Source of the DNA: a virus
Lineage: Duplodnaviria > Caudoviricetes
Strand: one strand, 5' to 3'
Virus record (IMG/VR): IMGVR_UViG_3300005662_000042
Location: 694 to 64,693 of that record
DNA: 64,000 nt
Below are positions 2,115-39,875 of the stretch, one piece after another. The first letter of the stretch is position 1. Every line of letters starts with the position of its first letter. Under the pieces are notes generated by a model that was given only the letters and a program-made list of their open reading frames with translations, ran no database searches and was not told the DNA's origin. Both the position numbers and the translations under genes were made by a program.

Positions 2115-2895
2115 AATTTTAGCAATTAGAGCAGCAAGCGGCTTAGTTAATTTAATGTCTAAGAAGCCAGTAAGTGGTGCAATAAAAGACAGTACAGTCG
2201 CACAAATATCTGCAGCTCTTTTTTATAAAACAAATGTAATGGCAAAGCTTGCGTCAAACCCGCAGTTTCAATCAGCATTTAGGAATATTATATTTGATCA
2301 GCTTCAGGTTGATTTTGGAGATTACATTGATGCAAAAGCCAGATCGGGCCCCAAATCTTTTCACCATGTATATGAATGGGGAAGGATTGGAGATGACGAA
2401 GCTCGATTATTTAAATTAAATAAGTTGCCAGCAGATGGACTATCTTTAAAAGTTAATTATGAATTAATAGACTCTCAGTCGTTTGTTCCATCTGAGAATT
2501 CTAATAATAAACATGTATTTATTAAAAAAGCAGAAGTTATGGAAGAGGGAAAGCCTGTAGTCATTGCGCCACGATTTTCTGAAAGACTAGTATTTGATGT
2601 AAGTGGATATACTGTATTCATGCCAAAGGGGCAACCTGTTACTGTAAGAAAGCCAGGCGGGGCTGGAACTAAAAACTCTTTCTTTTCTGCATATAAGTAT
2701 TTTTTTACTGGTCAACTTGTCAGTATGTCTATTAAAAAATCTGGATTCCAAAGACTTTTTAATTCATCTTTATCTAGAGCACTTGGAGTGCCAGTTCAAA
2801 TTAAAACAGTTAAATATAGTTTTTCTGCCAACCAGCTAGCAAACGAGGCAGATGTTGCAATATCATCATCTTTTGCGAGGTTGGCAAATGGCTAA
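2104..2895 (+). CDS. Neck/tail-completion protein
   Basis: 263-aa ORF between stopper and tail terminator. Confidence 0.5.
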   Translation: MASEILAIRAASGLVNLMSKKPVSGAIKDSTVAQISAALFYKTNVMAKLASNPQFQSAFRNIIFDQLQVDFGDYIDAKARSGPKSFHHVYEWGRIGDDEARLFKLNKLPADGLSLKVNYELIDSQSFVPSENSNNKHVFIKKAEVMEEGKPVVIAPRFSERLVFDVSGYTVFMPKGQPVTVRKPGGAGTKNSFFSAYKYFFTGQLVSMSIKKSGFQRLFNSSLSRALGVPVQIKTVKYSFSANQLANEADVAISSSFARLANG

Positions 2896-3397
2896 TTATA
2901 AACTAGATGCAATGTTTGAAATAAGAAAGTTTTTGTGGGGTAGGCTAACTGCTCTTAATATATTTGATCAAGAAGATTACTATTCGGATAATCTTAGAGA
3001 GTCTCTTATCCCAATAGTTCCAGTTCAACAGCAGCCAGAAATGAATCAATTTTTAAGTGGGAAAAAACATATAGTTTATGACAAGGTCGGGATGTCATAT
3101 GAGAATAACTGGATGATATGTTGCGAGCAGATACTGTTAACTATATATTCACCAGATCTTTTAGATATTGTCGAGATAAGAAACTTCCTGACTGATGAGT
3201 TTAGAAGAATGGACGAGTCGGCTAGAGATATGAACAGGTGGGCTGGCCTATCAGATAAATTTAAGTTCCATAGTATTCATATAGCCGATATATCTTCTAC
3301 AGCTCCATCAGAAGAAATACAGGGATTCTTTGCAGCAGATGTAATATTGGAAGCAAAATACTCCAGAATAACCAATGGCCAAGGCAGATTTGCCTAA
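2888..3397 (+). CDS. Tail terminator protein
   Basis: ATG at 2888 (MANYKLD) overlapping the previous stop; immediately precedes the major tail gene. Confidence 0.55.
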   Translation: MANYKLDAMFEIRKFLWGRLTALNIFDQEDYYSDNLRESLIPIVPVQQQPEMNQFLSGKKHIVYDKVGMSYENNWMICCEQILLTIYSPDLLDIVEIRNFLTDEFRRMDESARDMNRWAGLSDKFKFHSIHIADISSTAPSEEIQGFFAADVILEAKYSRITNGQGRFA

Positions 3398-3398
3398 C

Positions 3399-3427
3399 TT
3401 GCCTTTTATAAAATAGTAGAGTAAAAT
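3399..3427 (+). promoter_or_regulatory. Sigma70-type promoter for the major tail gene
   Basis: TTGCCT-17 nt-TAAAAT. Confidence 0.6.
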
Positions 3428-3498
3428 TAGAACAGAGGAAAGGGCCTAGCCAGCCAATATATATATATTAATTTCATATGAAATCAGGAGGAAATACA

Positions 3499-4242
3499 AT
3501 GGCACAATCACAAGGAGACGCCCGCAATATTCTCGTAGGCGCATCACCGCTATTTTTATCAGTAGAAGATTCAACATCAGCTGGTTATGATTCAAGCATG
3601 GAAGCAGGCGTACTAAACGCATTTGTTGCAAACAAGAATCAGTATGTACCAGCTTTTGAATCAGGAAAGTCTTACACAACAACACTAAACAGTGTTTTGA
3701 CTGAAAAAGCAGCAACACAAACAACAGCACCAGCAGAAGCAAAGGGTGGAGCTTACAGAAACGTAGGATTTACAAATAACGGTCTTCAGATCAGCTACCA
3801 GCCAACATTTGACTCAGTAACTGTTGACCAGTTGCTAGATACAGCTAAGTTGTTTAAGTCTGCAATGCAGGTTCAAATTTCAACAGAAATGTCAGAAGGT
3901 ACTCTAGAGAACATTCTTGCAGTATTCGGACAGAAGTCATCAACACTTACATCAGCAGGAACAGGTGCAACAGCAGTTGACACACTAGGTTTGGAAGCAG
4001 GTGCACTTGGTGCAGCTCCAACAGAGCGTCAGCTAATTGCAGTTGGACAGGCTCCAACTTCAGAGGCATCAGAAACTGAGCGTGTATATTATGCACGTCG
4101 TGTTCTTTCTGTTGAGCAGTCACAGTTCTCTTTGGCTCGTACAGCAGCAACAACATTCCCAGTAACATTCCGTCTGCTACCAGACGTAAATGCTGTTGGT
4201 TCAGAATACGGTAAGATTATTGACCGTGTTATAACACTTTAA
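3499..4242 (+). CDS. Major tail tube protein
   Basis: AGGAGG RBS, ATG at 3499; 'YRNVGFTNNGLQISYQPTFDSVTVDQLLD' siphoviral tail-tube pattern; followed by terminator, chaperone and TMP. Confidence 0.85.
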   Translation: MAQSQGDARNILVGASPLFLSVEDSTSAGYDSSMEAGVLNAFVANKNQYVPAFESGKSYTTTLNSVLTEKAATQTTAPAEAKGGAYRNVGFTNNGLQISYQPTFDSVTVDQLLDTAKLFKSAMQVQISTEMSEGTLENILAVFGQKSSTLTSAGTGATAVDTLGLEAGALGAAPTERQLIAVGQAPTSEASETERVYYARRVLSVEQSQFSLARTAATTFPVTFRLLPDVNAVGSEYGKIIDRVITL

Positions 4243-4682: not shown

Positions 4683-5017
4683 ATTTAGCCGCTTTAGAGG
4701 GTCAAGTTTTTCTTCTAGGACACTGGAAGAATTACGAAGAACTAGAAGAAAATTTATCGATGCCAGAGTTAGTTCAAACAATAACAGCGATAAATGAAAA
4801 AGAGCATAACCAGAGAAGATTTGCAGCATCACTAAAAGGAATACAATTAGATGATGCTGTAGAAGAAAAAGAAAAAGGTTCTACCTTTGAAGACATCCAA
4901 AGAAGAGCCCTTGGAATACATACATCAGCAGATGATGTTGTTAGTTTACAAGGACCCTTTGCAGCACAAGCTGGATTTGGAATCGGAGCAGGGTTAGGAT
5001 ACTCTAGGAGTGATTAG
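4640..5017 (+). CDS. Tail assembly chaperone frameshifted extension (gpGT-like C-terminal part)
   Basis: Open -1 frame ...WSELDLAALEGQVFLLGHWKNYEELEENLSMPEL...; includes the called ORF 4760..5017. Confidence 0.75.
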   Translation, partial: PKPNSGSGTGWSELDLAALEGQVFLLGHWKNYEELEENLSMPELVQTITAINEKEHNQRRFAASLKGIQLDDAVEEKEKGSTFEDIQRRALGIHTSADDVVSLQGPFAAQAGFGIGAGLGYSRSD

Positions 5018-8000
5018 TGGCTGACGAACAAATTGTAACGAGTATAGTCGCCAAAGCCGACTTGTCTAGCCTTGTGTCTGAAGTACACAGGGCTAGTTCC
5101 AGTCTCCAACAATTACAAAGAGAGCTTCTTTCTTCAAACAGAGCAATAGCTTCTTCAACAAAGTTAGCAAACAACTTATTTAGAGATACATTAACAGGTA
5201 GCGGGCAGTTCTCTAGTCACTTTGTAAACCTTAATTCAGATGTAGACAAGTTTGGTAAAAACTTAGATGCTGGAAGATTAAAGCTTAAGAACTACTTCTC
5301 AACATTTAGAGAACATGCCACTACCCAAAAGGGTATGATTAGGGAACTTGCTAAAGAGCAAGTAATGCTTCAAAATTCAGTACTACAGCCGTTGGGAAGA
5401 AATGCCCAGGGGCTAATGCAGTATAACGTAATGATTCCAAGAGGTCTTGATGCTGTAAAGAATAGTGCACAGCTAGCTAGAATGGAAATGCAGATTATGA
5501 ATCGTGCATTGTCAGAAGGAGCTGGATCTTTAATTAACTGGGGTAAAAATACTCAGTGGGCTGGTAGACAGCTTACAGTAGGATTAACTGTCCCTCTTAC
5601 AATGTTCGGTGCTGCAGCAGGAAAAGCTTTTAGAGAAGCAGATCAAGAGCTTGTAAGACTAACAAAGGTTTATGGTGGATTAGCTTCAACTTCAGCAGCA
5701 GATTTAAAAGCAATTAGAGAAGAAGTTGTTCAGACAGCAAAGTCTTTATCTCAAACTATGGGAGCTTCTTTTAAAGACACAATTGCTTTAGGTGCTGATA
5801 TTGCTGCAACTGGAAAAATGGGTAACGATCTTTTAGGTTCTATAGAAGAAACAACAAGACTAGCAATACTTGGTGAAGTAGATAGACAAGATGCTATGAA
5901 AGCAACTCTTTCAATTCAAACAGCATTTAAGCAAAATACAGAAGAGCTTACGGCATCAATTAACTTTCTTAACGCAGTTGAAAACCAAACATCTACAACA
6001 CTTAATGATTTAGTAGAAGCAATTCCAAAAGCTGGTCCAGTTGTACAGCAGCTTGGCGGCAGCATTGAAGACTTAGCCCTTTATATGACTGCAATGAGAG
6101 AGGGTGGAATTAATGCTTCAGAAGGCGCAAACGCATTAAAGTCAGGTTTAGCTTCTTTAATTAATCCAACAAAACAAACAATCGGAATGATGTCAGATTT
6201 TGGTATAGATGTAATGGGAATGGTTGCAAAAAATACTGGAGACACAACTGGGTTATTAATGGATTTGCAATTTGCTCTAGATAAACTGGATCCTTTAAGT
6301 AAGGCTAGAGCAATGGAGCAGATGTTTGGAAAGTTCCAGTTTGCAAGAATGAGCGCACTTTTAAATAACCTAGGTAAAGAGGGAAGCCAGACTTTACAGG
6401 TTATGGAATTAATGAAAGCAAGCACTTCAGATTTAGCAGGAATTGCTGAGCGAGAATTAGGAATGATAACAGAGTCAGCTTCTGGAAAATACAGAAGAGC
6501 AATGGAATCGCTAAAAGCATCTCTTGCAGATATTGGAGAAGACTTTCTTCCAGTTGCAACAAAGCTTATAAATGCCGCATCAAAGATACTAGACTTCTTT
6601 AGTAATTTACCAGCACCAATTAAAAAAGCAGTAACATTTATGGCAGGATTTACTGCATTAGTTGGACCACTTATTATGTTAACGGGTGTGCTTGCTAACT
6701 TCTTTGGATATATAACAAAAGGAATTGTACAGCTTAGAGCATTTTTCATGAAAGCAAGCGGATGGAAAATGCTTACTCCAGAAATTATTGCCGCACAAAA
6801 AGCAGCAGAGATGGTCGAGAATGCATTTTATTCAGATGCAGCTGCGGCTCAGGTTCTTCACAATGCATTACAAAAACTTGTTTTAGATTATCAAAACCTT
6901 CAAGCTGCATCAATGAAGGGTGCAGTTCCAGTAAATCCAGGAGTAAGCACAGTTGGTGGATCCACAATAGTTACTGCTGGAAGAAGAATTGTAGATGCTT
7001 CTGATCCTTATGTGGGAGATCCTAATACAAGGGCAATGTCACACATTAATCCTAGAGACCCAAATAATCCTGCAACAATATTTGGAGGGGTCCCAGGAGC
7101 AGTTCCAGTAAACAGAGGAATAGCAAGAACTCCTCAAATGTACATGCATGATAGACTTCCAAACGTTGAGGGTCTAACAAGTGTTAAGGGAATATCAACT
7201 GGAATTGTTCCAGGAGAGGCAGCAAAATTCCATGCATTAATGGCAACACTTGGAATGCAGACAGAGCAAGAAGTAGCATCATTAAAGAAAACAATTGCTA
7301 TGGGTGGAACAGTAAGCAGAGAACTTCTGGATACATTCGATGATATTCTTCCAATAACTCAAAGATTTGCCGACAGCGCAGCAACACAAGCAGCAGCAAT
7401 AGTTCAACAATTAAGAAATTCAGAAATAACAGTTGAGCAAGCAAAGGCAAGAATACTTGCACTAAACGCACAAATAGAAGCAGACATGGGTGCTGCAGTA
7501 ACTGCATACGCTGCATCACGAGGAAGAACAATTGATTTAACAAGAGCTCCAATGATGGGCCAGCCAGTCGTTGATGCAAATGGACAGTTTACGCTAAGAG
7601 ATTTATATAAGAAAAAAGCAAATGCTTCTGTAATGGAAGAGTTTGGAAGACTTCGAGGCATAAGAACATTTGGAGCTCCTTACAGTATTCAAACTACTAG
7701 AATGCCTAGATTTAATGATGGTGGAGGCATCGAGTCTTTTGGCCCAGGCAAGACTATGGTTTCTGGACCATCTTCAATTAATTATGATGACAGACTTGGC
7801 AGTGTTCCAGTTGGCGGGTATGTATTAAATCAGCAAGCCGCAATGGATCCAGCTAATGCTGCATTAGTAGCTATGGCACCAAGTACTTATTTAAATAACG
7901 GTGGAAATATTACTGCAGCTCTTACTCCACGGGAAGTAGTATTCGGACCTCAAATTCAAAGAATGCCTGAGCTATATGCAGCAGTAGATGCAGCAAACAA

Positions 8001-11000
8001 TGGTTATAATTTTGGCGGGCAGATCATGGATGGAGTTACTGGCTATGGAAAGAAAACTGCAAGAACTCCAAATGTAGAAGATAAAGCTTATTACAAGAAG
8101 CAGTTAAAAGAATATTTAAGATTTATTAATAACCCAAGATATGAAGACGACATCAGAGTAAGAATGATTATGCTTGATGCTGCAGAGCTAGCACATACAG
8201 CAGGTATACCAGTAGACAAGGCTATAAAAATTGCTTCGAGTAATTTTGATTTAGCAAAGAGTGCATCTGGTGGATCAATTGAAAAGTTTATTGAACAAAG
8301 AATTAAGCAGGTCAAGGGCCTAGAGAGAAGATATCCATCATTAAAACATCCAGATTCTTCATCTACAAGAACTCCTAATAGCAAGGCTTTAAACTACAAG
8401 CTAAATGATGTTAGATCGGCAATGCTTAGGAGCCCAAGATTTAAAAATGTTTTTGATTTAATTGATGGAATATCTCCAACCACAATAAAGAACCCTGGCG
8501 GAATGCCTTTGCTAGAAGGACTTCATGTTAGAGGCCACGTACTTAGACACGGACAGGTAGGATACGCAACCAGAGGTCATATGGGAGTTGCAGCAGTACT
8601 TCCTCATGGAATTAATAGTTTAATGTCACGACTTCAGGGGATAGGAATTTCTCCAGATGTACTAAGTTTAACAGGCCCAGATGCAAGAAAGAATTTTGAA
8701 ATAGCGCTAAAGTCTGTCGGAATGCACAGAATGACAAGCGTAGACGACATTGCAACAGCGCTAGAAGACAATAATTTATTTAAGAGCAAATCAGAAATTC
8801 AATCAGGAAGAGCAATTAGAGCAACCTCAAAACAAAGAAATGATTTGCAAATGTTCCTAGAGGCAGTAATGTCTAGGAAAAAATGGGTTATGATCCCTAG
8901 AGGAAGACCTCCTATTATGACTCCAGTTCTTGCAAAATTAAATAAGGGTGGAATGATCCCAGGCGGAAGTATATCTAGGGGTAGAAGTTCTTATGGCAAC
9001 CCAATGCCTTTATTGGCACCAGAGAAGATGCTTAAAATTTTAACAACAGCAAAGCAATTAAGCTCAAGAGAAGCACTAGGCTCATTTGCCGATACACCAA
9101 TAACTCAGTACGGACATAGAATTGCTGGCAGCTCTGGCATGAGCTACCCGATACCTGGTGTATCTGGTGTATACAGAGACGCTAAAGGTAAACTAGTTTT
9201 TGTTAAAGGCGTCTCACATGAAGCAGTTGCAATTCATGAGCCAATAGGGGCGGACATTGTTAGAAAGGGGTTTAAGATAAATACCCCAGTAATGGGAGCT
9301 AGAACAGTATCTAATCCTTTAGACCCAACAAAAAATAGTAAACTTCTTGCTCTAGAATCAGACTACGACCCACGCTTTGTAAAAACTAATGTGCCATGGG
9401 ATGAAGGTACAGTAATTAGACAGCTTGCCGCTTCTCTTCTTATGAATAATAAAGATTTGTCTAGGTCAAATGTATTTGGTAACTTTAATCCAGATGTTGG
9501 ACAATCTGGAGTATTTACTAGAGCATCTGGAAATACAGCAGTCGCAAAAGCTGAAGAAATGAACTCAATGGAAAAACAAGCAATGATTAACTTGCTTGCT
9601 GTTAGAGGCGGAGCAAGAAAAGACTTTGCACGTGATACAGCTCCAATAGTTGCTAAGATGAGCCCAAGAAGATATGGTCGACTAATGAAGGATGCATTAG
9701 TGCAAGCTCGTCCAGAATTAGTAAAGATTATAAACGGATTGCCTAAAGAAATTCGTGGCCCTTATATTGCAATGCTTAAAAGGTTGGATGATGGAATCGA
9801 AGTTGATTGGAGTAAATACCATTCTTTGCATGCTAATCCAACATACCTTAATGCTGGAGGTCCAATCGGCGGAGGCTTAATTAGAAGAGGTAGATATGCC
9901 TACGGTGCTAAAAAAGATGGATCAAGAAGATCAGGAAATCCAGCAAAAAGAGCTGAGCAAGAAAGATTAAGAGCAGAAAGAGCAGCATCTTATCAGCCAA
10001 CAAGATCTGGCTCTTCTTACACAGCTACTGGTAATCCACAAGTACAGGTTACCCGTGTCCCTTATGTTGGAGGAACTGGAGTACGTGGAAACGCTTACAC
10101 TGGACAACTTACTCCTTCTGCAGCTAGAACTATTAGCACAATGAGGCTGGCACAATTCCCTTATATGAATATGCCAACTATGCCAATGAACATTCCAGGG
10201 ATTGGAAATACAGCAGCAATAACACAAGCATTTTCGTCTGTATCTTCTTCTATACAAAAGGGTTCAATAAGATTCAACCTAGAGCTACTCAACGCAGCTA
10301 GTAAAATGGGAATTGCCTATAAGCAGTCTACAATGTCAATCATAAATGTTTCAAAGACTGCAGTAGCAACAGCTAGAAATTTTGCAACATCATCAGCTGA
10401 TATGGCTAAAGGTTTTGTGCAAAGAAGACAAGCTGAAATATTAAGAGAGCAGGCTTTAGTTACAGCAAGACATTATCCTAATGGAGGATTCGATCCTTAT
10501 CAAAGATCATACTTCGGGCCTGGAATGGTCGGAGACTGGAGAAGCACTGGTCAAGATGGAATACAGAAAAGAAAAGTAGGAAGCCTCGGATTTAGAAAAA
10601 CAGAGTATATGATTGATGGTCAGCATATGACTAAGGCTCAAGCAAAGGCAGCAGGAGTTGCTTTGCCTCCAAGAGGTATGGGCATGGGCAGCCAAATGGG
10701 AATCGGAATGGCTGGATCAATGGGCGGTATGGCCTTGATGCAGAAAGAAAAGGTTAACGTACTTGGTTATGAAATGTCTGGAGCATCAGCAGGAATGGGT
10801 GTTATGGCTGCAAGCAGCATACTTCCATTCTTACCATATGCAAAAATGGGTGCTGGACTTAAGAGCGCAGGAACTGCATCAGTAGGTCTTGCAAAAGGAA
10901 TGGCAGCGGCAGCTAAAGCTGGAACATTCTTTATAAAAATACTTCCAAAATTGCTACACTTTGCCAAAGCCTTTGGCCCAATCGGATTAGTTATAACAGC

Positions 11001-14000
11001 AGCTGCAACCGCATTCTCAATATTTAAGGCCAATAACGACGCATGGCAAGATGCCAGAATGGGTCTTTCTATGACCGAAAAGGCGGCAGAGCAGGCTGGA
11101 GTTAAATACTTTAACCTTCAAGAAACAATGCAAGGCTATCTTGATAAGCAAAAGGCTGTAGCAATTGCAGGCAAGGCCTCACAGTATAATTCAATAGGAA
11201 TGCCTGGACTTCCACAGTCTATAGAAGACATGAAGAAGGCAAAAGAAGAGGGTAAGGGCCTAACAGATTTAATTGAATCTATTAATAGGTCTACAAGTGC
11301 TGCTGAAACTAAGAGACTCGTAGCAAATCAAAAAGCACAATATATTGCAGGTGGAATGAGCATAGCGGACGCAAATAGAAAAATATACGGAGCGATGCTT
11401 AACAGTGAAAAATCAGGTCAAGTATTTAATATTATAGGCAACAGTGCATTTGGATCAATTACTGATAAGGCTTCAGCAGCAGAATATTCTGTTAAGAGCT
11501 TAATCAATACATTAAATAATGGCGACGGAACCGCTGACTGGGGCAAAGAAGTTGGCGTAGGCTTTGAAGGATTAATAAATGTATTTAGCTCAGCTACAAA
11601 TTCTTTGATTGGAACAAAAGATGCTTTAGGAAATGTAATAGACGAGTACACTGCATATCAAATGGTTATGAGTGATGCAGAAAGTAATAATCCAAAAATT
11701 AATGAGGCAATAGGACAAAGTGTTTATTCAAATTTAATTGACTCACAGCCACTGTTAGAGCTAATTGCAAATAAATCAGATAGCATTAAAGGCATATTGG
11801 CAAAGTGGAAGTTGTTTACATCTGGAGTTAATATAGACTTAAGTAAGATTGATTCAACCTTAGCAATTAAATTAGCTGGATTTTCCCAAGCAATTGGAAC
11901 AGGAATTCAAAAATTAACTAATTCAGCTGATAATGCAACTACATTCTCTTCAGTTGGATCGGCACTAGAAAGATTAAAGAAGACCATCGGATCTGTATCT
12001 GCAGCATCTCAAAGAGCAGCTAATGCTGCACAAAGAAGTGCACAAGAAGAGTTAAAGCTAATTTCCAAAAAGATTAAACTTATTGATGATGAAAAAAATA
12101 AAAAGCTGGAAGCGCTAAGAGCAACACAAGAAGCATCTAACTATGCGCTATCTTTGCAAAAGCTACAGATAGAATATGCTGATGCGGTATCTCGTGGAGA
12201 CATGGCTACAGCAAATCGTGCTCAGCTAGAGATAGATCAGCTTACAATGAACAGGCAAACAGAACTTGCCACTAAAGCAATTGAAGATGCTGCAGCAAAA
12301 GCTAAGGCACCACTAGAAAAGAAGGCGACTGACATACAGGATGCCTCAGATAAACGATCTAATACTATTGCAACAAATCAAGACAAAGCCGCTTCTGCAT
12401 CAGAAATAGCTGCAAAGCTTACAGAGTTCCAAGAAAAATATAACGAAATAGTTGAAAGAGGAATTCAGGCTCAGGTACTTCCAGATGCAGAAAGAAAGAA
12501 AGAAGAAAAAGCAGTTAGAGAGTCTTTACTTGCATTTGCTAAAGAAGTTCAAAATGCTGGAACTGGAAGCTCTGCTCTTTCAAAAGAAATACGTAACGCA
12601 TTCTTTAAGCTAGGGCTATTTGACAAAGATGGAAAAGCAATTCCAGTAACTACAACAAAACCTACAGGCGGAATGCCAACAGGAGTTGATGCAAACGGCA
12701 AACCAATAATTCCAACTACCACTACAATAAACTCAGGGCTAACAGAGCAATTTGCTAAAGATATGAAGGCAGTAACCTCCCTTGCACTAGATATAACTGG
12801 AGGAACTACTTTAAATCAACTCAGACTAGATTTGCTAAAAGCTCTAGGAAAAAGCAGTTCAGCAACAGCTGACCCAACAACAGTTGGAGGCAAGGTTGTG
12901 CCTGGTAAAGGTGGAAATCCAACAAAGTACTTTGACTCTAAGGGTAACCAGATAACAAAAGAGCAATATGAAAGTATGCCATCTTCTTCACCTGGCGGCG
13001 GAACTAATTTTTCAGTACCTATAGATGGATTAAAGAGCAAATCTTTTGGAAGCATGTCTGCTGTACAGAGAGAATTTTTTGAGTTAAATGGTGGTAAAGG
13101 AGAGTACAAGAGTGTTGATGGATATAAATACTTAGCAAATGGTTTGGTCTACAAAGACAAAGCTATTGTAGGCCGATGGTGGCATTTCTTGCCAAATGGT
13201 AATGGCAGAGTTAAAACTTATAGTGAGGGATCCCCTGGAGGAGTTGTATCTGGTCCAGGAACTGGAACATCTGATTCTATTCCAGCAATGCTTTCAAATG
13301 GAGAGTATGTAATAAAAGCAGCTTCTGTTGCGAAATATGGAACTCAAACATTTGATGCACTGAATGCTGGAAAATATGCAGATGGTGGTTTAGTACTTAA
13401 TGAGCCAAGGCCTGCAGTCGACTATACCCCACTTCCCTCTACACCAATATCAAAGCTAGGTAAAACTACACAAGCGCAGATTAAGTATTTAAGAGATTGG
13501 ACCAATTTATTAAACACCTACTATGCTGCAAAGTACAAGGACATTTTTAGCTTTAAGCCAGGAGAAAAAATTGTAACTTCATTAGATACAATGCCTGTTG
13601 TCAAAGGCACCAAGGTAGTTAAAGATCCAGATAAAGCTTTACTTGATACCCAACAGTACGGGGGGCAATATAGACATTACGATTCTTCAATAACTATGGG
13701 CTTAGGCTTGGCTGGAAAACCAATGTTTATACCAAATCCAATAAATGAACCATCCACAATGAAAAATCTTAATCTAATCTCGTCCTTTCCGTTTTTAGCA
13801 AAAGGAATGTCTCCAGTTGATTACATAGAATCTATTTCAAAGGATGCACAAAAAAATCCATATGGAAGAATGGAAATTTTAACTACATTATTCCATGAAT
13901 TTGCTCATGCGCTACAATTTAGAATAAACGGATACATAAAAAATTCACAAAAATCAAGAGGATTAACTGATGTAGGAGATCCCAATAAGCCAACTCCAGG

Positions 14001-16392
14001 ATTCCTTAATATAGAATCTGGAGCCGATGTAATGGCTGGCGGTATATTTAAAGAAATGTATTCCAACGGATATATTCCTCAAATAAAAAAGTCTGTTATA
14101 GACACGCTTCTTAAAAGCCAAACTCTGACTGCATCTTACGGAGATGTCCCAGCATTTGATAAAAGAGATCCATCTTCTGAAAACTTCACCTGGCATCCAT
14201 ATAACAATAATTTTAGATTTAAATCTGTTATGACAGGATTTGGAATGGGTGACAGTGCATCTTTTGACGATACACTTACACTTAGAAAACAGTACCTCAC
14301 AGAAAATGGTGGAGTTCCAATAACATTTGCAGAAATAGGCGACTCTGCTGCAGCAATTGCTGCAATAACTCCAAACATGATTCCAAAGGGATTTCATAAA
14401 GGAGGGCCAGTCGGTCATAGGCATGGAAGAAATGCTCCTTCAACATCTGGCAATACAGCTCCTTCACAAGGTTCTTGGTGGGATAAACTTGGATTAAAGA
14501 TGTCTTATAAGCCAGACGGAATGATGAACCCTGTAGGAATGACTGGGTTTGGCATTCTTGATGCAATAAAATCTTTAGGTGCCGTAGCTATCGGCAGTGT
14601 TGTTCCATCTCTTCCTGCAAGAGAAAGAGACATAGCAAGCGCTGCAGAAACAACACTTGTAGGTCCAGCATCCAGATTATTTGGAAGTGAAAGATTCCCA
14701 AGTCCATGGGGAGAATCAGGGCTAGGAATGTCAAGCGGATGGTCAAAAGGAATGGATGTGGCTTCTATATTAGCAGCCGTTGTACCATTTGGAATGGTAG
14801 CCAGAACTTCTCAACAAACAGCAGTAAATGCTGCAGCATTTCCAGCAGCAAGAGCAGCAGCATCAGTAGGTCTTGCTAAACCAAAACCAACATTGCCATC
14901 ACTGATGCCTGATGTCTTAAAGCCCAAAAAAGTCATGCCATCCGAATATTCTTTAGCCTATGATGCATCTGGATCTATGCATAGAATAGAAGTTAAATTA
15001 GGAGATGAGGTTGCAGGATACCTAACATGGGATAAAGAGACGGGGGTTGTTGAAAACTTACAGGTATACCCTAAACACCAAGGCAAGAATGTTGCAACAG
15101 CAATGTACAACAAGGCTCAAACAATTGCCCCAATTACACACAGCTCATACAGAACTCCAGCTGGCGATATATTTGCACACAGCATTGGAGACCCAGTTGT
15201 ACCTTTAAACGATAGTTGGCTTCCAGGAGATTGGACACAGGCGCAACTTGACGCAGCAAAACTTAGAAATAAAAATCATGTAGTTACACAATTACCTAAA
15301 GTTAAAGATCCAGACCTAGATGGCTTCTCTGGACCAGATATAGTTGGAGGACAAAGAGTAGTAGGAACTGAAAACTGGGGCAGCCTAATAACAGAAAATA
15401 GTGATATTATGAAAATATTAACTGAATTAAGCGCATTTTATAAAGTTGATGTTCGTCCTTCAGTTATTAGACAGAAAATGACTCCTGGCACCGCTGGATA
15501 TCATCGCAGTGACACACAGTCAGTGTATTTCCCAGATAAAACTAGGGGTGCCGTTGTAGCTCATGAAATAACGCATGCGGCGGACTTTCAGGGAGCTTAT
15601 TGGTCTTTTGAGGACATGCTGAAGTATCTATTAAAGACAGATAGAAAAGCCGCAGAGATAGTATTTAATGAATCAATGATGAATTCTTATGGCGTAGCTA
15701 AAAGTGGTGGAAATAGACCAGCATGGCTTTATGATTCGGTAGCCAGTAATCTAGAAACATATGCACCACAGCATCTACCATACTGGAGAGGCCTATTAGA
15801 AAAAAATGCAAATTCGCAAATACCTAATATAAAGCCTGCAGGATTAGATTTGGGCAATCCTTATGCTGATATATATGGATTTAAATTAGCTTCAATGCTT
15901 AAGTCATCTATGCGTGAAGGGTCCACACACTATAGAAGTCCTAAATTTTGGGAAGCACTAATAGCAGATGAAAATATTCCTTCCCACCTTGCTAAAAAGG
16001 GAGAAGGTTATATCGCGGCATTAAATAGATATCGTGTGGATGAAACTACACCAAATGATTCATTCCAGCTTAAAAAATTATTGGAGTACGCAATAGCGAC
16101 TAAAATGGCTAAGGGTGGATTAGTGGGAATACCTAAATTTGAAGCGGGAATTAATGTGGTCCCAGCTGACATGTTAGCAATGATTCATAAGAATGAAGCG
16201 GTAATTCCAGCCAACATGAATCCATTTAATCCAAATGCTACATCTTCCGCCGTGGCATCAGGATCAGTATATAATATTAATGTAGAGCTAAACGGAACTA
16301 CAGTAACAGCAAAAGACGTTGCAATGGAAATACATAGAGAGATGAGAATAAAAGAAATGGCAGCTGGAGTAAATAGAACGGTGGGCAAATAA
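5017..16392 (+). CDS. Giant tape measure protein with embedded enzyme-like domains
   Basis: 3791 aa, GTG start, follows the chaperone. N-terminal TP901-type TMP core; hydrophobic segments at about 10680-11030; C-terminal GPGTGTSDSIPAMLSNGEYV and AMIHKNEAVIP motifs; internal kinase-like, HExxH (x2) and GNAT motifs. Confidence 0.92.
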   Translation: MADEQIVTSIVAKADLSSLVSEVHRASSSLQQLQRELLSSNRAIASSTKLANNLFRDTLTGSGQFSSHFVNLNSDVDKFGKNLDAGRLKLKNYFSTFREHATTQKGMIRELAKEQVMLQNSVLQPLGRNAQGLMQYNVMIPRGLDAVKNSAQLARMEMQIMNRALSEGAGSLINWGKNTQWAGRQLTVGLTVPLTMFGAAAGKAFREADQELVRLTKVYGGLASTSAADLKAIREEVVQTAKSLSQTMGASFKDTIALGADIAATGKMGNDLLGSIEETTRLAILGEVDRQDAMKATLSIQTAFKQNTEELTASINFLNAVENQTSTTLNDLVEAIPKAGPVVQQLGGSIEDLALYMTAMREGGINASEGANALKSGLASLINPTKQTIGMMSDFGIDVMGMVAKNTGDTTGLLMDLQFALDKLDPLSKARAMEQMFGKFQFARMSALLNNLGKEGSQTLQVMELMKASTSDLAGIAERELGMITESASGKYRRAMESLKASLADIGEDFLPVATKLINAASKILDFFSNLPAPIKKAVTFMAGFTALVGPLIMLTGVLANFFGYITKGIVQLRAFFMKASGWKMLTPEIIAAQKAAEMVENAFYSDAAAAQVLHNALQKLVLDYQNLQAASMKGAVPVNPGVSTVGGSTIVTAGRRIVDASDPYVGDPNTRAMSHINPRDPNNPATIFGGVPGAVPVNRGIARTPQMYMHDRLPNVEGLTSVKGISTGIVPGEAAKFHALMATLGMQTEQEVASLKKTIAMGGTVSRELLDTFDDILPITQRFADSAATQAAAIVQQLRNSEITVEQAKARILALNAQIEADMGAAVTAYAASRGRTIDLTRAPMMGQPVVDANGQFTLRDLYKKKANASVMEEFGRLRGIRTFGAPYSIQTTRMPRFNDGGGIESFGPGKTMVSGPSSINYDDRLGSVPVGGYVLNQQAAMDPANAALVAMAPSTYLNNGGNITAALTPREVVFGPQIQRMPELYAAVDAANNGYNFGGQIMDGVTGYGKKTARTPNVEDKAYYKKQLKEYLRFINNPRYEDDIRVRMIMLDAAELAHTAGIPVDKAIKIASSNFDLAKSASGGSIEKFIEQRIKQVKGLERRYPSLKHPDSSSTRTPNSKALNYKLNDVRSAMLRSPRFKNVFDLIDGISPTTIKNPGGMPLLEGLHVRGHVLRHGQVGYATRGHMGVAAVLPHGINSLMSRLQGIGISPDVLSLTGPDARKNFEIALKSVGMHRMTSVDDIATALEDNNLFKSKSEIQSGRAIRATSKQRNDLQMFLEAVMSRKKWVMIPRGRPPIMTPVLAKLNKGGMIPGGSISRGRSSYGNPMPLLAPEKMLKILTTAKQLSSREALGSFADTPITQYGHRIAGSSGMSYPIPGVSGVYRDAKGKLVFVKGVSHEAVAIHEPIGADIVRKGFKINTPVMGARTVSNPLDPTKNSKLLALESDYDPRFVKTNVPWDEGTVIRQLAASLLMNNKDLSRSNVFGNFNPDVGQSGVFTRASGNTAVAKAEEMNSMEKQAMINLLAVRGGARKDFARDTAPIVAKMSPRRYGRLMKDALVQARPELVKIINGLPKEIRGPYIAMLKRLDDGIEVDWSKYHSLHANPTYLNAGGPIGGGLIRRGRYAYGAKKDGSRRSGNPAKRAEQERLRAERAASYQPTRSGSSYTATGNPQVQVTRVPYVGGTGVRGNAYTGQLTPSAARTISTMRLAQFPYMNMPTMPMNIPGIGNTAAITQAFSSVSSSIQKGSIRFNLELLNAASKMGIAYKQSTMSIINVSKTAVATARNFATSSADMAKGFVQRRQAEILREQALVTARHYPNGGFDPYQRSYFGPGMVGDWRSTGQDGIQKRKVGSLGFRKTEYMIDGQHMTKAQAKAAGVALPPRGMGMGSQMGIGMAGSMGGMALMQKEKVNVLGYEMSGASAGMGVMAASSILPFLPYAKMGAGLKSAGTASVGLAKGMAAAAKAGTFFIKILPKLLHFAKAFGPIGLVITAAATAFSIFKANNDAWQDARMGLSMTEKAAEQAGVKYFNLQETMQGYLDKQKAVAIAGKASQYNSIGMPGLPQSIEDMKKAKEEGKGLTDLIESINRSTSAAETKRLVANQKAQYIAGGMSIADANRKIYGAMLNSEKSGQVFNIIGNSAFGSITDKASAAEYSVKSLINTLNNGDGTADWGKEVGVGFEGLINVFSSATNSLIGTKDALGNVIDEYTAYQMVMSDAESNNPKINEAIGQSVYSNLIDSQPLLELIANKSDSIKGILAKWKLFTSGVNIDLSKIDSTLAIKLAGFSQAIGTGIQKLTNSADNATTFSSVGSALERLKKTIGSVSAASQRAANAAQRSAQEELKLISKKIKLIDDEKNKKLEALRATQEASNYALSLQKLQIEYADAVSRGDMATANRAQLEIDQLTMNRQTELATKAIEDAAAKAKAPLEKKATDIQDASDKRSNTIATNQDKAASASEIAAKLTEFQEKYNEIVERGIQAQVLPDAERKKEEKAVRESLLAFAKEVQNAGTGSSALSKEIRNAFFKLGLFDKDGKAIPVTTTKPTGGMPTGVDANGKPIIPTTTTINSGLTEQFAKDMKAVTSLALDITGGTTLNQLRLDLLKALGKSSSATADPTTVGGKVVPGKGGNPTKYFDSKGNQITKEQYESMPSSSPGGGTNFSVPIDGLKSKSFGSMSAVQREFFELNGGKGEYKSVDGYKYLANGLVYKDKAIVGRWWHFLPNGNGRVKTYSEGSPGGVVSGPGTGTSDSIPAMLSNGEYVIKAASVAKYGTQTFDALNAGKYADGGLVLNEPRPAVDYTPLPSTPISKLGKTTQAQIKYLRDWTNLLNTYYAAKYKDIFSFKPGEKIVTSLDTMPVVKGTKVVKDPDKALLDTQQYGGQYRHYDSSITMGLGLAGKPMFIPNPINEPSTMKNLNLISSFPFLAKGMSPVDYIESISKDAQKNPYGRMEILTTLFHEFAHALQFRINGYIKNSQKSRGLTDVGDPNKPTPGFLNIESGADVMAGGIFKEMYSNGYIPQIKKSVIDTLLKSQTLTASYGDVPAFDKRDPSSENFTWHPYNNNFRFKSVMTGFGMGDSASFDDTLTLRKQYLTENGGVPITFAEIGDSAAAIAAITPNMIPKGFHKGGPVGHRHGRNAPSTSGNTAPSQGSWWDKLGLKMSYKPDGMMNPVGMTGFGILDAIKSLGAVAIGSVVPSLPARERDIASAAETTLVGPASRLFGSERFPSPWGESGLGMSSGWSKGMDVASILAAVVPFGMVARTSQQTAVNAAAFPAARAAASVGLAKPKPTLPSLMPDVLKPKKVMPSEYSLAYDASGSMHRIEVKLGDEVAGYLTWDKETGVVENLQVYPKHQGKNVATAMYNKAQTIAPITHSSYRTPAGDIFAHSIGDPVVPLNDSWLPGDWTQAQLDAAKLRNKNHVVTQLPKVKDPDLDGFSGPDIVGGQRVVGTENWGSLITENSDIMKILTELSAFYKVDVRPSVIRQKMTPGTAGYHRSDTQSVYFPDKTRGAVVAHEITHAADFQGAYWSFEDMLKYLLKTDRKAAEIVFNESMMNSYGVAKSGGNRPAWLYDSVASNLETYAPQHLPYWRGLLEKNANSQIPNIKPAGLDLGNPYADIYGFKLASMLKSSMREGSTHYRSPKFWEALIADENIPSHLAKKGEGYIAALNRYRVDETTPNDSFQLKKLLEYAIATKMAKGGLVGIPKFEAGINVVPADMLAMIHKNEAVIPANMNPFNPNATSSAVASGSVYNINVELNGTTVTAKDVAMEIHREMRIKEMAAGVNRTVGK

Positions 16393-28476: not shown

Positions 28477-28736
28477 CAGAAAAGAATAGATTTGAACAGT
28501 ATTTAGAAAAGCAAAAAGAAAGAGCTGAGAGCGAAGGCAAAAAAGATGTAAAGCCTTGGGACCTTCTTAATCCTAATACTGAGTATGTAGATTCAGAAAT
28601 CTCATCAGAAAGATTTAATATATGTAAGGTTTGTCCAGAGCTATTTCAAATGACCAAACAGTGTAAAAAGTGTGGGTGCTTTATGGCATTAAAAACTAAG
28701 TTAAAAAATGCAAGCTGCCCGATTGGTAAATGGTAA
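28473..28736 (+). CDS. Small Cys-rich metal-binding protein (DUF6171-like)
   Basis: ATGA overlap; RFNICKVCPEL...QCKKCGCFMALKTKL..ASCPIGKW. Confidence 0.65.
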   Translation: MTEKNRFEQYLEKQKERAESEGKKDVKPWDLLNPNTEYVDSEISSERFNICKVCPELFQMTKQCKKCGCFMALKTKLKNASCPIGKW

Positions 28737-29638
28737 TGGCTAGCATATTCGTTCAAATACCCTCATACCACGACCTAGAACTGGCTAGAACAATTCAGGA
28801 TTGTTTAAAAAAAAGTTCAGGTAAACATGTTATAAATTTTGGAGTACATTTAACTTACTTTAATAATAACGACATTAATATTCCTAATTTAAATAATGTC
28901 AAGTTTAGTATAAGCCGTGCTCCAGATAATATAGGGGTGGGAACTTCAAGGCATATAGCAAATGAATTCTATAATGGAGAAGATTATTATTTGCAGATAG
29001 ATTCTCACATGCGATTTGGTGAGTTCTGGGATGATATTCTAATTAATAATTATCTAAAGTATAAGTCTATGGGATCTAATCCAGCTATATCCTGTTACCC
29101 TGGAGCATACGAGTATAATGGATTTGACGTGGACATTTTAAATACAAAGTCTCACGTTGCATATACTGAATTTATTCAAGAGTTAAGCTTTCAAAATAAC
29201 TATGTTCCGCACCAAAGAGCAGTTGGAAATTTTGGAAACAATGTTTTTTCAAAATCTGTGTCAGCCGCATCAATATTTTCAAGTGGAGAAATGGCATCTA
29301 TAAAACCAAATAAGAAGATGTTTTTTTGGGGAGAAGAAATTTTAACAGCCATAAGGCTATATACCCATGGGTTTGATATAATGTTGCCAGAGGCTCAATT
29401 CTTTTACCATCTATACTATGACCACGCAAAAGGCTATAAAAATTTAAGAAGGCAGGTAACGGAAGATTTCCCTATAGAGTCTTCTGTTCTTGAAACAAAT
29501 TCACAAAAAGAGCTTAAAAGGATTATCATCGATAAGCCAGTGGGGGATCAAGAGCTGGGATCAATAAGGACCCTAGAAGAATACGAGTTATTTGCGGGCA
29601 TCAATTTTATTGACAAAAAGATTACGCAAGTGTTATAA
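28736..29638 (+). CDS. GlcNAc transferase-like glycosyltransferase (PF11397/GT60-like)
   Basis: IFVQIPSYHD, GVGTSR, EDYYLQIDSHMRFGEFWD, FFWGEE...RLYTHGFDI, YHLY motifs. Confidence 0.75.
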   Translation: MASIFVQIPSYHDLELARTIQDCLKKSSGKHVINFGVHLTYFNNNDINIPNLNNVKFSISRAPDNIGVGTSRHIANEFYNGEDYYLQIDSHMRFGEFWDDILINNYLKYKSMGSNPAISCYPGAYEYNGFDVDILNTKSHVAYTEFIQELSFQNNYVPHQRAVGNFGNNVFSKSVSAASIFSSGEMASIKPNKKMFFWGEEILTAIRLYTHGFDIMLPEAQFFYHLYYDHAKGYKNLRRQVTEDFPIESSVLETNSQKELKRIIIDKPVGDQELGSIRTLEEYELFAGINFIDKKITQVL

Positions 29639-32302: not shown

Positions 32303-32606
32303 AAAGCAGCCGTACATCCTAATTAGCCTATACCTTTCTTTGTATAAAGAAAAATACAATAAGGTTTTGACTATTAATAAGTTTAGAGAAAAGTGGGCTA
32401 TGCAAGATGTTATTGATAGTGTAGGATATGATCGTGCAGTTGAGCTTTTAAAGTATTATTTCAAGACGGCAAAGTCGGGACACCCACTTAACTTCTTCTA
32501 TAATAACTTTGATAGAATTGATAATTTAGAAAAAGAAATTAAGAAGGATAAGGCAGTTCGCAGTGTCCTTCTAGAAGAAACTAAGAAGATGGTGGAAAAC
32601 GAATAA
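32292..32606 (+). CDS. Hypothetical protein (possible helicase loader/initiator partner)
   Basis: 104 aa directly upstream of, and coupled to, the DnaB-like gene. Confidence 0.55.
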   Translation: MANEKQPYILISLYLSLYKEKYNKVLTINKFREKWAMQDVIDSVGYDRAVELLKYYFKTAKSGHPLNFFYNNFDRIDNLEKEIKKDKAVRSVLLEETKKMVENE

Positions 32607-33850
32607 TGAATACAGAAGCAACATTAATTTCTGCGGTATGCAAGAACAAAGATATTAGCACACTGCTTGCTGATAATGTTGATGAGCTATTTACTTCCCA
32701 TAAAGATATTTGGGAAGGCTTAAAGTCATACTATTATAAATTTAAAGCTGTTCCAGAGGTAGGTATTCTTCAGGAAAGGTTTAAAGATTTTGAGCCAGTA
32801 GATGCTAAGGCCGAGACTGGCTATTATCTAGACCAGCTTAAGAATGAGTTCATATCAAATAAACTGAAGAGTATTATTATTAAGGGAGGCTCTGCGCTAA
32901 AGGAAGATGCAGCCTCTAGAGTGCTTGCACAAATGCAAAGCGACTTAGCAGGCTTAAGTCGTTTTACAAATAATGTCAGAGACTTAGATATTATTGATGT
33001 AGAAAATGCAGCACGACATTATGAAGCAACCAAGGAGCGTTCATCCGTAATGGGTGGTGCTCCAGGAATCCTGACGGGCTTCAGCGCAATCGACAAAGCG
33101 TACCCAACTGGAATGGCTCCAGGACACCTTATCGTTGCCATTGGTTGGCCAGGGCGTGGTAAGACATGGTTTACGTCATATCTTGCATGCAAAGCTTGGG
33201 AGCAAGGGTTTAAGCCCATGATTGTTTCTCTTGAAATGTCTCCCGAAAACATGCGTGATCGTATCTTTACAATGCTAGGCTCTGGAATATTCAGAGCAAG
33301 CGATTTGTCAAAGGGTGATATCAACATTGATGATTTCCGTAACTGGGGAAATAAGAAGTTTGAGGGAAAGAATAGTTTTGTTCTAATCTCAAATGAAGGT
33401 GCATCAGAAGTTACACCTGCAACTATTCAAGGTAAGATAGATCAGCATAAGCCAGACCTAGTTATTCTTGATTATCACCAACTATTTAATGACAATAAAA
33501 GAAGTAATTCTGAAGTAGAAAGAAACAGAAACGTATCTCGTGAATTTAAGATGCTTGCCGTGTCAAATAATATTCCTATTATTGACATTACTGCAGCAAC
33601 TGCAGATGATGTATCTGATCAAGATAATCCTCCGATGATGTCTCAGGTTGCTTGGTCTAAAGCAATTGAATACGATGCAGACATGGCTTTGGCAGTACAC
33701 AGATACCCTCAAACCAATATGATTGAGATTGTTTCTAGGAAGAATAGACACGGTCATGACTTTAATTTTTACCTAGATTGGGATATCAACAGGGGTATCG
33801 TCAAAGAGATTTACGAAAACCCTTTTGAAAATGACTCACAAAAGAATTAA
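32606..33850 (+). CDS. dnaB: DnaB-like replicative helicase
   Basis: Walker A GWPGRGKT, SLEMS, ILDYHQL, IEYDAD, KNRHG. Confidence 0.92.
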   Translation: MNTEATLISAVCKNKDISTLLADNVDELFTSHKDIWEGLKSYYYKFKAVPEVGILQERFKDFEPVDAKAETGYYLDQLKNEFISNKLKSIIIKGGSALKEDAASRVLAQMQSDLAGLSRFTNNVRDLDIIDVENAARHYEATKERSSVMGGAPGILTGFSAIDKAYPTGMAPGHLIVAIGWPGRGKTWFTSYLACKAWEQGFKPMIVSLEMSPENMRDRIFTMLGSGIFRASDLSKGDINIDDFRNWGNKKFEGKNSFVLISNEGASEVTPATIQGKIDQHKPDLVILDYHQLFNDNKRSNSEVERNRNVSREFKMLAVSNNIPIIDITAATADDVSDQDNPPMMSQVAWSKAIEYDADMALAVHRYPQTNMIEIVSRKNRHGHDFNFYLDWDINRGIVKEIYENPFENDSQKN

Positions 33851-34133
33851 AAGATTTCAAATTGATGTAGAGTTTTATGATAATGCTCAGCTGATTAGCC
33901 TTAAGCCACAGTATGAGAATTTACTTACTCATGACATGAGGTCTAAAGGGTACGCTAGAGTACTTGACATAGACACAGCATTTTCGGTAGAATTTACAGG
34001 TGAGACATGGAAGTTCTTAATGACACTCCATGGAATATATGTAGGAAAGAAGCAAGCATGGCTATCAGAGGGTATAACGCAAGGAAAGTTGATTCCACGT
34101 ACTATGCGCCCAACCATATCAAATCAATCATAA
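33831..34133 (+). CDS. Hypothetical protein
   Basis: About 100-aa ORF between helicase and primase. Confidence 0.55.
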   Translation: MTHKRIKRFQIDVEFYDNAQLISLKPQYENLLTHDMRSKGYARVLDIDTAFSVEFTGETWKFLMTLHGIYVGKKQAWLSEGITQGKLIPRTMRPTISNQS

Positions 34134-35056
34134 AGGCTTTAGGTTTAGATATTGTTGCAGAGCCAGGTAACGAGGTTATGTTCTACTGTCCTTTTCATTC
34201 CAATAGGCACACAGCAAGCTGTTGCATAAACAAATCTTCTGGGGCATGGCTATGCTTTAATCCTTCTTGTGGTGAAACTGGAACCCTGACAGAGCTGGTT
34301 AGAAGAGTATTACACAAAAATGATTTTGAGGCCATTAGATTTATTGCTGCTCAGGAGCAAGAAGCGTTAAACAATTTTGATGAAGTTATGGCAAGTATGT
34401 TTGAGGTTAAACCAGACTTCGAGGAGTTTCCTCAAGACACTTTGGATAGATTACATGCAGACCTTTACGGTCATAAGCAAGCAAGAGATTACTTAAACTC
34501 AAGAGGAATTGTAGATCAATCCATGAAAGACTTTAATCTTGGGTATTCTAATGCAATGGGAATGGTCATTACACCAGTTCATAGTCCAGACGGGATGCCT
34601 ATTGGCTTGGTAGGTAGATCAATTGAGGGTAAAGCTTTTAAGAATAGCACCAGCTTGCCAAAGAGCAAAACCTTATTTAATGTTCATCGTGCTAAAAAAA
34701 TTGGAGACCACGTTATAGTGGTAGAGTCAAACTTTGATGCAATAAGAATACATCAGGCAGGGTTTCCAAATGTGGTCGCAACTCTAGGCGGCATTTTGTC
34801 AACAGAGCAGCACAAGATTTTAAATAGATATTTTAATAAGATAACAATAATGACCGACTCAGACTTGGCTGGCAGGGAGCTAGGGCTAAGCATAGCCAAT
34901 AGATTAAAAAATAAAGACATCTTGTGGGGATCTTATGAATATGGTAAGATATATCCACATGATGCAAAAGATGCAGGCGATATGACCGATGAGGAAATTA
35001 AAGCCTGTATTAAAAATTCAGTATCTGATATCGAATATCGATCTTGGAGCCCATAA
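34058..35056 (+). CDS. dnaG: DNA primase (zinc finger + TOPRIM)
   Basis: CPFH...C..C zinc-binding domain; VVESNFDA and DSDLAG TOPRIM motifs. Confidence 0.9.
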   Translation: MAIRGYNARKVDSTYYAPNHIKSIIKALGLDIVAEPGNEVMFYCPFHSNRHTASCCINKSSGAWLCFNPSCGETGTLTELVRRVLHKNDFEAIRFIAAQEQEALNNFDEVMASMFEVKPDFEEFPQDTLDRLHADLYGHKQARDYLNSRGIVDQSMKDFNLGYSNAMGMVITPVHSPDGMPIGLVGRSIEGKAFKNSTSLPKSKTLFNVHRAKKIGDHVIVVESNFDAIRIHQAGFPNVVATLGGILSTEQHKILNRYFNKITIMTDSDLAGRELGLSIANRLKNKDILWGSYEYGKIYPHDAKDAGDMTDEEIKACIKNSVSDIEYRSWSP

Positions 35057-35106
35057 AAATAAAATAAAGATGGATATATACCATCAACTATAGAGAAGAG
35101 GAACAA

Positions 35107-35775
35107 ATGGGAATAGTAAAAGGTCTTAAGGACTTAAATAAAGTAATGGACAAGCCACAGTCTTCAGGTGGAGAAGGAACCAAAGCTCGCTGGGTAAAGC
35201 TAGAAGATAGCGAAAGCGTAAAGATTCGTTTTCTTCAAGAACTTGATCCAGACTCACCAACATATAACGAAAAGTTAGGTCTAGGTTTTATTGCTGTAGA
35301 GCATACAAATCCAAAAGACTATCGCCGTAAGGCACTTTGTTCAATGGACGATCAGGGAAAGTGCTACGGTTGCGAGCAGCATCGTAAGGACTACAAGGCT
35401 GGTTGGAAAGGCCGTTCAAGACTGTACATTAACGTATTAGTAGATGATGGCAAAGAAGATCCTTATGTAGGAATTCTTTCACAGGGTTCAAGTGGCAAAA
35501 CAGTAACACCAACACTTATCGAGTATGCTGGTGAAATGGGAAGCATTACTAACCTAATGTGGCGTATTAAGCGCACAGGAACAAAAACCGATACAAGTTA
35601 TACAATCATCCCTCTAGCTAAGGATGAAACACCGTTTGACGGGACAACTCTTGAGCTTTACAAGCTTGAGGAAACTGCAGTACGTGATCTTCCGTACACA
35701 GACCAGGAGTCATTCTTTGCTGGAGAGCATTCAAGCGAAGAAGATTCTAGTTCATCTAGCAGCGTAGACTGGTAA
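35107..35775 (+). CDS. Single-stranded DNA-binding protein (gp32-like)
   Basis: H...C...C..C zinc motif; KRTGTKTDTSY; acidic/Ser-rich tail; position in the replication module. Confidence 0.7.
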   Translation: MGIVKGLKDLNKVMDKPQSSGGEGTKARWVKLEDSESVKIRFLQELDPDSPTYNEKLGLGFIAVEHTNPKDYRRKALCSMDDQGKCYGCEQHRKDYKAGWKGRSRLYINVLVDDGKEDPYVGILSQGSSGKTVTPTLIEYAGEMGSITNLMWRIKRTGTKTDTSYTIIPLAKDETPFDGTTLELYKLEETAVRDLPYTDQESFFAGEHSSEEDSSSSSSVDW

Positions 35776-35786
35776 TACAAGTATAT

Positions 35787-35829: not shown

Positions 35830-35835
35830 ATCAAT

Positions 35836-39854: not shown

Positions 39855-39875
39855 TGTATAAAAGAAAGAGAAAAA

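Follow-up and report, generated by a model that had tools for sequence, protein, structure and literature searches.

A predicted kinase-fold module within the giant tape measure protein of an uncultured phage

Residues 1354–1607 of a giant tape measure protein (TMP) are predicted to form an atypical kinase. The protein is encoded by the virus record IMGVR_UViG_3300005662_000042 (64,693 nt; CheckV completeness estimate 48%), of which we analysed 64 kb, hereafter the window, with a G+C content of ~37%. On the evidence of a structural model, this module very probably adopts the protein-kinase-like (PKL) fold and is probably an active phosphotransferase; analogy with other systems makes its action on the host after ejection an evenly balanced matter. 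Cautiously, we favour the model-based reading that it is a catalytically competent kinase, carried out of the tail with the TMP, whose site of action is the cytoplasmic side of the entry pore. The parts of the module, with coordinates in the window and counts among 129 aligned homologues, are as follows:

5017..16392, plus strand: giant TMP open reading frame (ORF), 3,791 residues, a single open frame with PF10145 and PHROG matches and with gene order as in Streptomyces phage Annadreamy
9076..9837, plus strand: kinase-fold core domain, residues 1354–1607, delimited by the AlphaFold2 model and VIA-align (homologue matches cover query residues ~30–283)
8989..9075, plus strand: N-terminal helical extension of the module, residues 1325–1353 (model helices 11–24 and 27–33), less conserved than the kinase core
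8929..8967, plus strand: upstream Gly-Gly linker LNKGGMIPGG, right after which homologue coverage climbs steeply
9853..9876, plus strand: downstream Gly-Gly linker AGGPIGGG; homologue coverage falls right after residue ~1605
9136..9174, plus strand: extended Gly-rich loop, G1374-x-S1376 ... G-V-S-G1384-x-Y, between model strands 41–47 and 60–64
9157..9174, plus strand: GVSGVY, within the extended Gly-rich loop
9205..9207, plus strand: K1397 (VFVK), the predicted ATP-phosphate-binding Lys, on strand b3 (model strand 69–75; 129/129)
9238..9240, plus strand: E1408 (HEP), the predicted helix-C Glu pairing with the Lys (model helix 78–95; 129/129)
9451..9471, plus strand: catalytic loop K-D-L-S-R-S-N (K1479, D1480, N1485), after model helix 139–151; DLSRSN occupies 9454–9471
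9493..9501, plus strand: D-V-G (D1493), the metal-binding DFG equivalent (D 129/129, G1495 125/129)
9523..9528, plus strand: A1503-S1504, in the segment after DVG at the activation-loop position (128/129 and 126/129)

To model the module, AlphaFold2 was given a 42-row alignment, and the resulting structure had a predicted local distance difference test score (pLDDT) of 90.6 and a predicted template modelling score of 0.89. Numbered as the TMP residue minus 1324, the N-lobe runs through strand 41–47, the Gly loop (57–62), strands 60–64 and 69–75 (carrying K73) and helix 78–95 (carrying E84); two further strands, helix 139–151 (helix E), the catalytic loop (155–161), DVG (169–171) and a helical C-lobe (helices 194–287) follow. 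The kinase-like motif order first read from the DNA is therefore matched by the model, in which each motif sits on its expected secondary-structure element: two lobes with a helix C, the Gly loop, Lys and Glu in order, and D-x4-N together with D-x-G, as in the PKL fold. A Foldseek search of the PDB had only kinases as its top matches, the best being CtkA (probability 0.99, E 1.2e-3), and all of the best 50 (50/50) of 48,161 representative chains in VIA-align were kinase-fold enzymes. CotH came highest there (Z 11.3, 213–215 residues aligned, root-mean-square deviation 4.1–4.2), followed by CtkA, with Z 9.6 in the first search and up to 11.2 over ~200 residues in a second look. The type II PI4-kinases (PI4KII alpha 9.4 in the first search; alpha and beta 9.4–9.8 overall, 9.8 in the second look), MavQ (9.5), Fam20C (8.9), HipA (8.5; HipA/HipT range 8.5–8.9), VPS34 (8.1–8.7), actin-fragmin kinase (8.2) and Rio1 (7.2) were also found. 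A Z of 7–8 is the typical best match by chance; the top matches exceed it, but the kinase fold is argued more by the uniformity of this list than by its top scores. The likeness to HipA, CtkA and PI3K proposed in the original prediction was thus upheld at the level of structure, where all three are among the top matches (CotH and CtkA highest), but not as sequence membership of the HipA or PI3K/PI4K families. Neither HipA_C (PF07804) nor PF00454 matched the kinase module of this TMP or of 42 family members at E <= 1, the HipA N-domain Couple_hipA (PF13657) gave no match, and hhalign against the single E. coli HipA returned nothing. Likewise CotH (PF08757) matched neither the TMP nor, in six-frame translation, any part of the whole 64.7 kb record, while the positive control genomes did match. 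From these comparisons the module is best described as having a known fold, while its sequence family and its setting are new.

Homologues were sought with residues 1325–1612 as the query among 1.84 billion representative proteins (E <= 0.001). This search found 157 clusters (50% identity), nearly all of them proteins of 2,000–4,500 residues or fragments thereof, and 133 giant TMPs with 46–100% identity came from a word-indexed search. When 129 representatives were aligned, sharing 44% pairwise identity on average and 19% at the least, conservation of at least 97% was confined to 17 of the 288 columns. The motif residues, whose conservation in homologues the original prediction had left to be checked, proved invariant or nearly so: G1384, K1397, E1408, N1485 and D1493 were each present in 129/129 and D1480 in 128/129, G1374 and S1376 were also invariant, and K1479 was kept in 114/129. 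Judged from this alignment, the kinase motif pattern is not a product of chance, and the module is shown to be under strong purifying selection. The position two after D1480, which is His in D-x-H-x-x-N loops, varies among Ser, Gln, Gly, Ala and Lys. The earlier worry that replacement of this His might mark a pseudokinase is unsupported, the Asp, the Asn and the Asp of D-x-G being nearly or fully invariant while the His position is variable. Nor is this His universal in kinase-fold enzymes, as eukaryotic protein kinases have Lys there and RIO has Ser. A pseudokinase appears unlikely because six canonical kinase residues are among the 17 columns conserved at 97% or above.

The motifs lie exactly at the positions first given for them, all in the frame of the ORF at 5017..16392 on the plus strand, and their placement inside a TMP was borne out. 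This ORF matches PF10145 (PhageMin_Tail; E 4.7e-26, residues 239–438) and 16 PHROG families, 14 of which are tail length tape measure families and two without known function (best E 1.4e-118). Upstream lies an ORF with a sub-threshold match to the tail tube family PF25681 (E 3.3e-4, 20.8 bits; cut-off 27), two small chaperone-sized ORFs stand between it and the TMP, and ORFs of 196 and 1,089 residues follow downstream; in Annadreamy the tail tube, chaperones, TMP and minor tail proteins come in the same order. By homology, then, the 3,791-codon ORF is a tape measure protein. That the module might be a gene of its own, or an artefact of a frameshift, was rejected because the frame is open and homologues of 2,700–4,500 residues share the layout. 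No competing ORF of at least 80 residues overlaps 9100–9830 on either strand.

Outside the module, four further elements of the TMP bear on its architecture:

5731..6330, plus strand: PF10145 core in the N-terminal TMP region, residues 239–438 (Pfam), within a wider N-core of residues ~50–600
6625..6714, plus strand: first hydrophobic (transmembrane-like) segment, residues 537–566 (Kyte-Doolittle scan)
10969..11025, plus strand: second hydrophobic segment, residues 1985–2003, after a Gly/Met-rich stretch (Kyte-Doolittle scan)
16117..16383, plus strand: conserved C-terminal ~90 residues, 3701–3789, with 26% identity to the final 90 residues of the Annadreamy TMP

Among 100 long family members, the parts shared with this TMP are the N-core (94–95/100) and the module at residues 1350–1600 (92–100/100), and the remaining parts are present in 0–40/100. 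The module lies between the hydrophobic segment at residue ~540, which is also present in the family members listed from the Kyte-Doolittle scan, and a later hydrophobic cluster; 85/100 long members have at least one hydrophobic segment after the module. In most members it occupies residues ~725–1010. It is found farther along, at ~1330–1620, in the sub-clade of this TMP because ~600 extra residues are inserted before it. The new aspect is that a kinase family invisible to Pfam belongs to the conserved core of giant TMPs across a large clade; the kinase fold and the idea of virion-delivered enzymes are already known. No kinase within a tape measure protein turned up in our literature search. 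Free-standing or cellular relatives did not appear in a profile search of proteins of 130–1,239 residues, which gave only six fragments, and scanning 185,579 species genomes by pattern returned nothing for the kinase module. One further match, in record IMGVR_UViG_3300045125_000026 (L038:2001-2855; 61% identity in the best segment), has 14 stop codons in the expected frame, which may reflect a frameshift, decay of this copy or poor assembly.

In culture, the nearest relatives are Streptomyces phages 125–133 kb in size (Stanwilliamsviridae). With the Annadreamy TMP the core shares 33% identity over residues 63–648; in the 2,076-residue Annadreamy TMP the N-core leads almost directly to the hydrophobic cluster, without a kinase module, and besides the N-core only the C-terminal ~90 residues are conserved between the two proteins. 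These last residues are probably the tail-tip-binding end. A replication module at 32606–40880 (DnaB-like helicase, DnaG-type primase, DnaE-type Pol III alpha and RecA) places the phage near Stanwilliamsviridae, its DnaE-type polymerase being 57% identical to those of Streptomyces phages BillNye and Circinus. Because of the DnaE (57%) and TMP core (33%) identities to Streptomyces phages the host is probably an actinobacterium, and because of the 37% G+C of the window probably a low-GC one.

What is established of TMPs is that they are held metastable in the tail tube and then expelled into the envelope as a DNA conduit (PMC10770324, PMC13277306). Because the TMP fills the tail tube and is stored and expelled in this way, a module embedded in it would leave the virion along with it at infection, probably in a non-native state, and refold. 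Refolding and action would take place on the cytoplasmic side of the entry pore, because a kinase needs ATP and ATP is present only on that side. A host target would then be phosphorylated before any phage gene is expressed, to the benefit of takeover, counter-defence or DNA entry. This target is more likely to be a protein, as the analogy with CotH, CtkA, HipA and Fam20C argues, and a membrane lipid is possible.

Several points weigh against this proposal. The kinase module had no match in Pfam (E <= 1), in PHROGs, or in phmmer and profile searches of the PDB, and hhalign against a HipA alignment gave a probability of 0.85%; that profile is shallow because the HipA homologue search returned only relatives of at least 74% identity. 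Searching 50,697 cultured phage records with tblastn found no kinase module. The equivalence of the motif residues to those of solved active sites rests on the order of secondary-structure elements, not on superposition, and the predicted fold does not tell the substrate class, protein or lipid. The module could also end up outside the cytoplasm, without ATP. Finally, a folded domain of ~30 kDa should not fit the lumen of a siphovirus tail in several copies, and for that reason it must be supposed to be stored unfolded or in a metastable form. At the usual TMP ratio of ~1.5 Å of tail per residue, 3,791 residues would specify a tail of ~570 nm, and housing such a TMP with several globular modules inside the tail is a difficulty.

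The substrate is where the strongest of the rival explanations, itself unlikely, departs from the favoured one. Here the module would be a kinase of lipids or small molecules that the flanking hydrophobic TMP segments keep at the membrane and that phosphorylates a host membrane lipid such as phosphatidylinositol or a polyprenol at the entry site, and so alters the local membrane or blocks superinfection. Among the best structural matches the type II PI4-kinases, MavQ and, at Z ~8, PI3K/VPS34 would fit such a role, and so would the nearest named clusters in a language-model atlas, HipA_2 and PI3_PI4_kinase (0.92), which serve as leads only. In BFVD, the neighbours of the model among viral structures are large phage proteins, one of them annotated as an HK97 portal (E 2.8e-6), others as PI3/4-kinase (PI3K/PI4K) catalytic domain and others, from Mycobacterium phage Onyinye and uncultured phages, as ADP-ribosyltransferase, together with uncharacterised Gordonia phage proteins; kinase-like domains are therefore a wider theme in big virion-type proteins, a point that counts for the favoured reading as well. 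By analogy, PI4KII and MavQ, together with a membrane-flanked position in a probable actinophage, argue for a lipid substrate, and actinobacteria do contain phosphatidylinositol. However, CotH and CtkA, which head the list of matches, phosphorylate proteins, and so do Fam20C, HipA and actin-fragmin kinase; differences in Z of 1–2 do not discriminate; and the module has neither a PF00454 match nor a lipid-binding element that we could find. The narrower form of this idea, a PI4KII/MavQ-like lipid kinase tethered between the TMP membrane segments and phosphorylating phosphatidylinositol or another actinobacterial lipid at DNA entry, is less likely again.

Improbable, too, is that the kinase serves the producer cell rather than the newly infected one, where, while tails are being assembled, it would phosphorylate the TMP, the tail chaperones or further proteins of the virion. 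Such a role would agree with the top structural match, since CotH phosphorylates spore-coat proteins during coat assembly, and with the plentiful ATP of the producer cytoplasm; the module is also fixed within the TMP architecture instead of being a terminal add-on, and a Ser in the activation-loop region is conserved (S1504). Yet long tails are also made by the nearest cultured relatives, whose TMPs have no such module, other enzyme-like TMP modules vary like effector cassettes, and we know of no phage that requires phosphorylation for tail assembly. A third possibility, to which we give a small chance, is that the domain binds nucleotide without transferring phosphate, a pseudo-enzyme or switch in which binding of cytoplasmic ATP drives refolding or gating of the TMP pore. 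A position between transmembrane-like segments would suit a cytoplasmic ATP sensor, and no substrate-binding feature was identified in the module. Pseudokinases, however, usually lose the catalytic Asp and the metal ligands, and here the catalytic-loop Asp and the metal ligands Asn and D-x-G Asp are kept in addition to the ATP-binding Lys, Glu and Gly loop. Least probable of all is another chemistry on a host target, such as SelO-like AMPylation or SidJ-like glutamylation: function does not follow from fold alone and some kinase-fold enzymes do have non-kinase chemistry, but the full canonical set K/E/D-x4-N/DxG is retained and SelO and SidJ were outside the best 50 in both VIA-align searches.

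Other enzyme-like features were seen in this TMP and its relatives. A second kinase-like module (D-x-H-x-x-N ... [IL]D[FL]G), unrelated in sequence to the first, is present in ten family TMPs, mostly near the C-terminus (P0102, P0104, P0110, P0112, P0129, P0130, P0134, P0225, P0241 and P0247). In the fragment P0247 it comes directly after the first module and gives a weak PF00454 match (E 0.008). As far as these motifs indicate, kinases recur as TMP cargo, which speaks for the favoured reading. In P0261, a fragment of 652 residues, a HAD class-B acid phosphatase domain (PF03767, E 1.2e-6) comes after the kinase module, which is 27% identical, so that kinase and phosphatase are joined in a single polypeptide. 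Directly upstream of the kinase in the window's TMP, residues 1005–1310 (8029–8946) form a His-rich module that is found in only ~8–13/100 long members, has no Pfam match and is modelled by AlphaFold2 as mostly helical with low confidence (pLDDT 62). Toward the end of the TMP, 13390–16100 (residues ~2790–3695) contains two HExxH motifs, HEFAH and HEITH, and sub-threshold matches to GNAT (PF00583, E 0.046, residues 3322–3371) and to M13 peptidase (E 0.17); HExxH- and GNAT-like modules are present in 0–3/100 family members and behave as variable cassettes. Elsewhere in the window, genes with PF11397 (GlcNAc glycosyltransferase) lie at 28730–29638 (E 2.3e-31) and 55323–56276 (E 1.3e-24), and near them are a carbamoyltransferase (52761–54185), an APS-kinase-like gene (44937–45695) and a 2OG-Fe(II) oxygenase (41052–41825).

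Virion-borne or injected enzymes that act on the host before gene expression include T4 Alt, the virion RNA polymerases of N4 and P23-45, and MuF-fused toxins. If the favoured reading is true, a TMP-borne kinase would add phosphorylation to this pre-early toolkit and would show the TMP to be a delivery scaffold for folded enzymes, the module itself being conserved in over 150 sequence clusters from uncultured relatives of actinophages. A defence protein or membrane lipid as the substrate would bear on infection by phages of abundant low-GC actinobacteria; were the enzyme a lipid kinase, the virion would enzymatically remodel host membrane lipids during genome delivery or superinfection exclusion.

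Among known kinases, the best structural match, the Bacillus spore-coat kinase CotH (5JD9/5JDA; PF08757), has the same atypical kinase fold with a helical C-lobe. Identity to it is only 9–10%, however, PF08757 does not match, and CotH is a free-standing bacterial protein of spore assembly whereas the module is embedded in a phage TMP. CtkA (JHP0940; 3AKJ/3AKK/3AKL), a Ser/Thr kinase that Helicobacter pylori secretes, is close to the module in size and is exported to act on another cell, as is proposed for the module; unlike the module it stands alone, is secreted and targets eukaryotic cells, and at 11–14% identity the two have no sequence-level kinship. Type II PI 4-kinases and the Legionella PI 3-kinase MavQ (PF00454) share the order of a D-x4-N catalytic loop and then D-x-G, but the module has no PF00454 match and lacks the His of the class I/III DRHxxN loop. 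HipA/HipT toxin kinases (PF07804) resemble it in fold (Z 8.5–8.9) and differ in that the module has no Pfam match, no Couple_hipA N-domain, no catalytic-loop His and no antitoxin context.

An experimental precedent for an enzyme in a TMP is gp96 of Thermus phage P23-45, likewise a giant TMP (5,002 residues). Its N-terminal part transcribes the pre-early genes as a virion RNA polymerase and is proposed to work at the TMP pore during genome entry (Chaban et al. 2024, PMC10770324). Gp96 is an RNA polymerase and not a kinase, comes from an unrelated lineage and host, and has demonstrated activity, whereas the module is predicted from sequence and model. The polyvalent proteins combine kinase, GNAT, ADP-ribosyltransferase and metallopeptidase domains, are thought to be delivered with phage or plasmid DNA and, as proposed by Iyer et al. 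2017 (PMC5512222), are split into pieces by metallopeptidases of their own; the term "tape measure" has 0 occurrences in that paper. This TMP may resemble them in its predicted kinase fold, its two HExxH motifs and its sub-threshold GNAT match. The polyvalent-protein kinases, found mainly in elements of Verrucomicrobia, Chlamydia and Bacteroidetes, are described as being without the whole C-terminal subdomain (PMC5512222), whereas the module in its predicted structure keeps a helical C-lobe.

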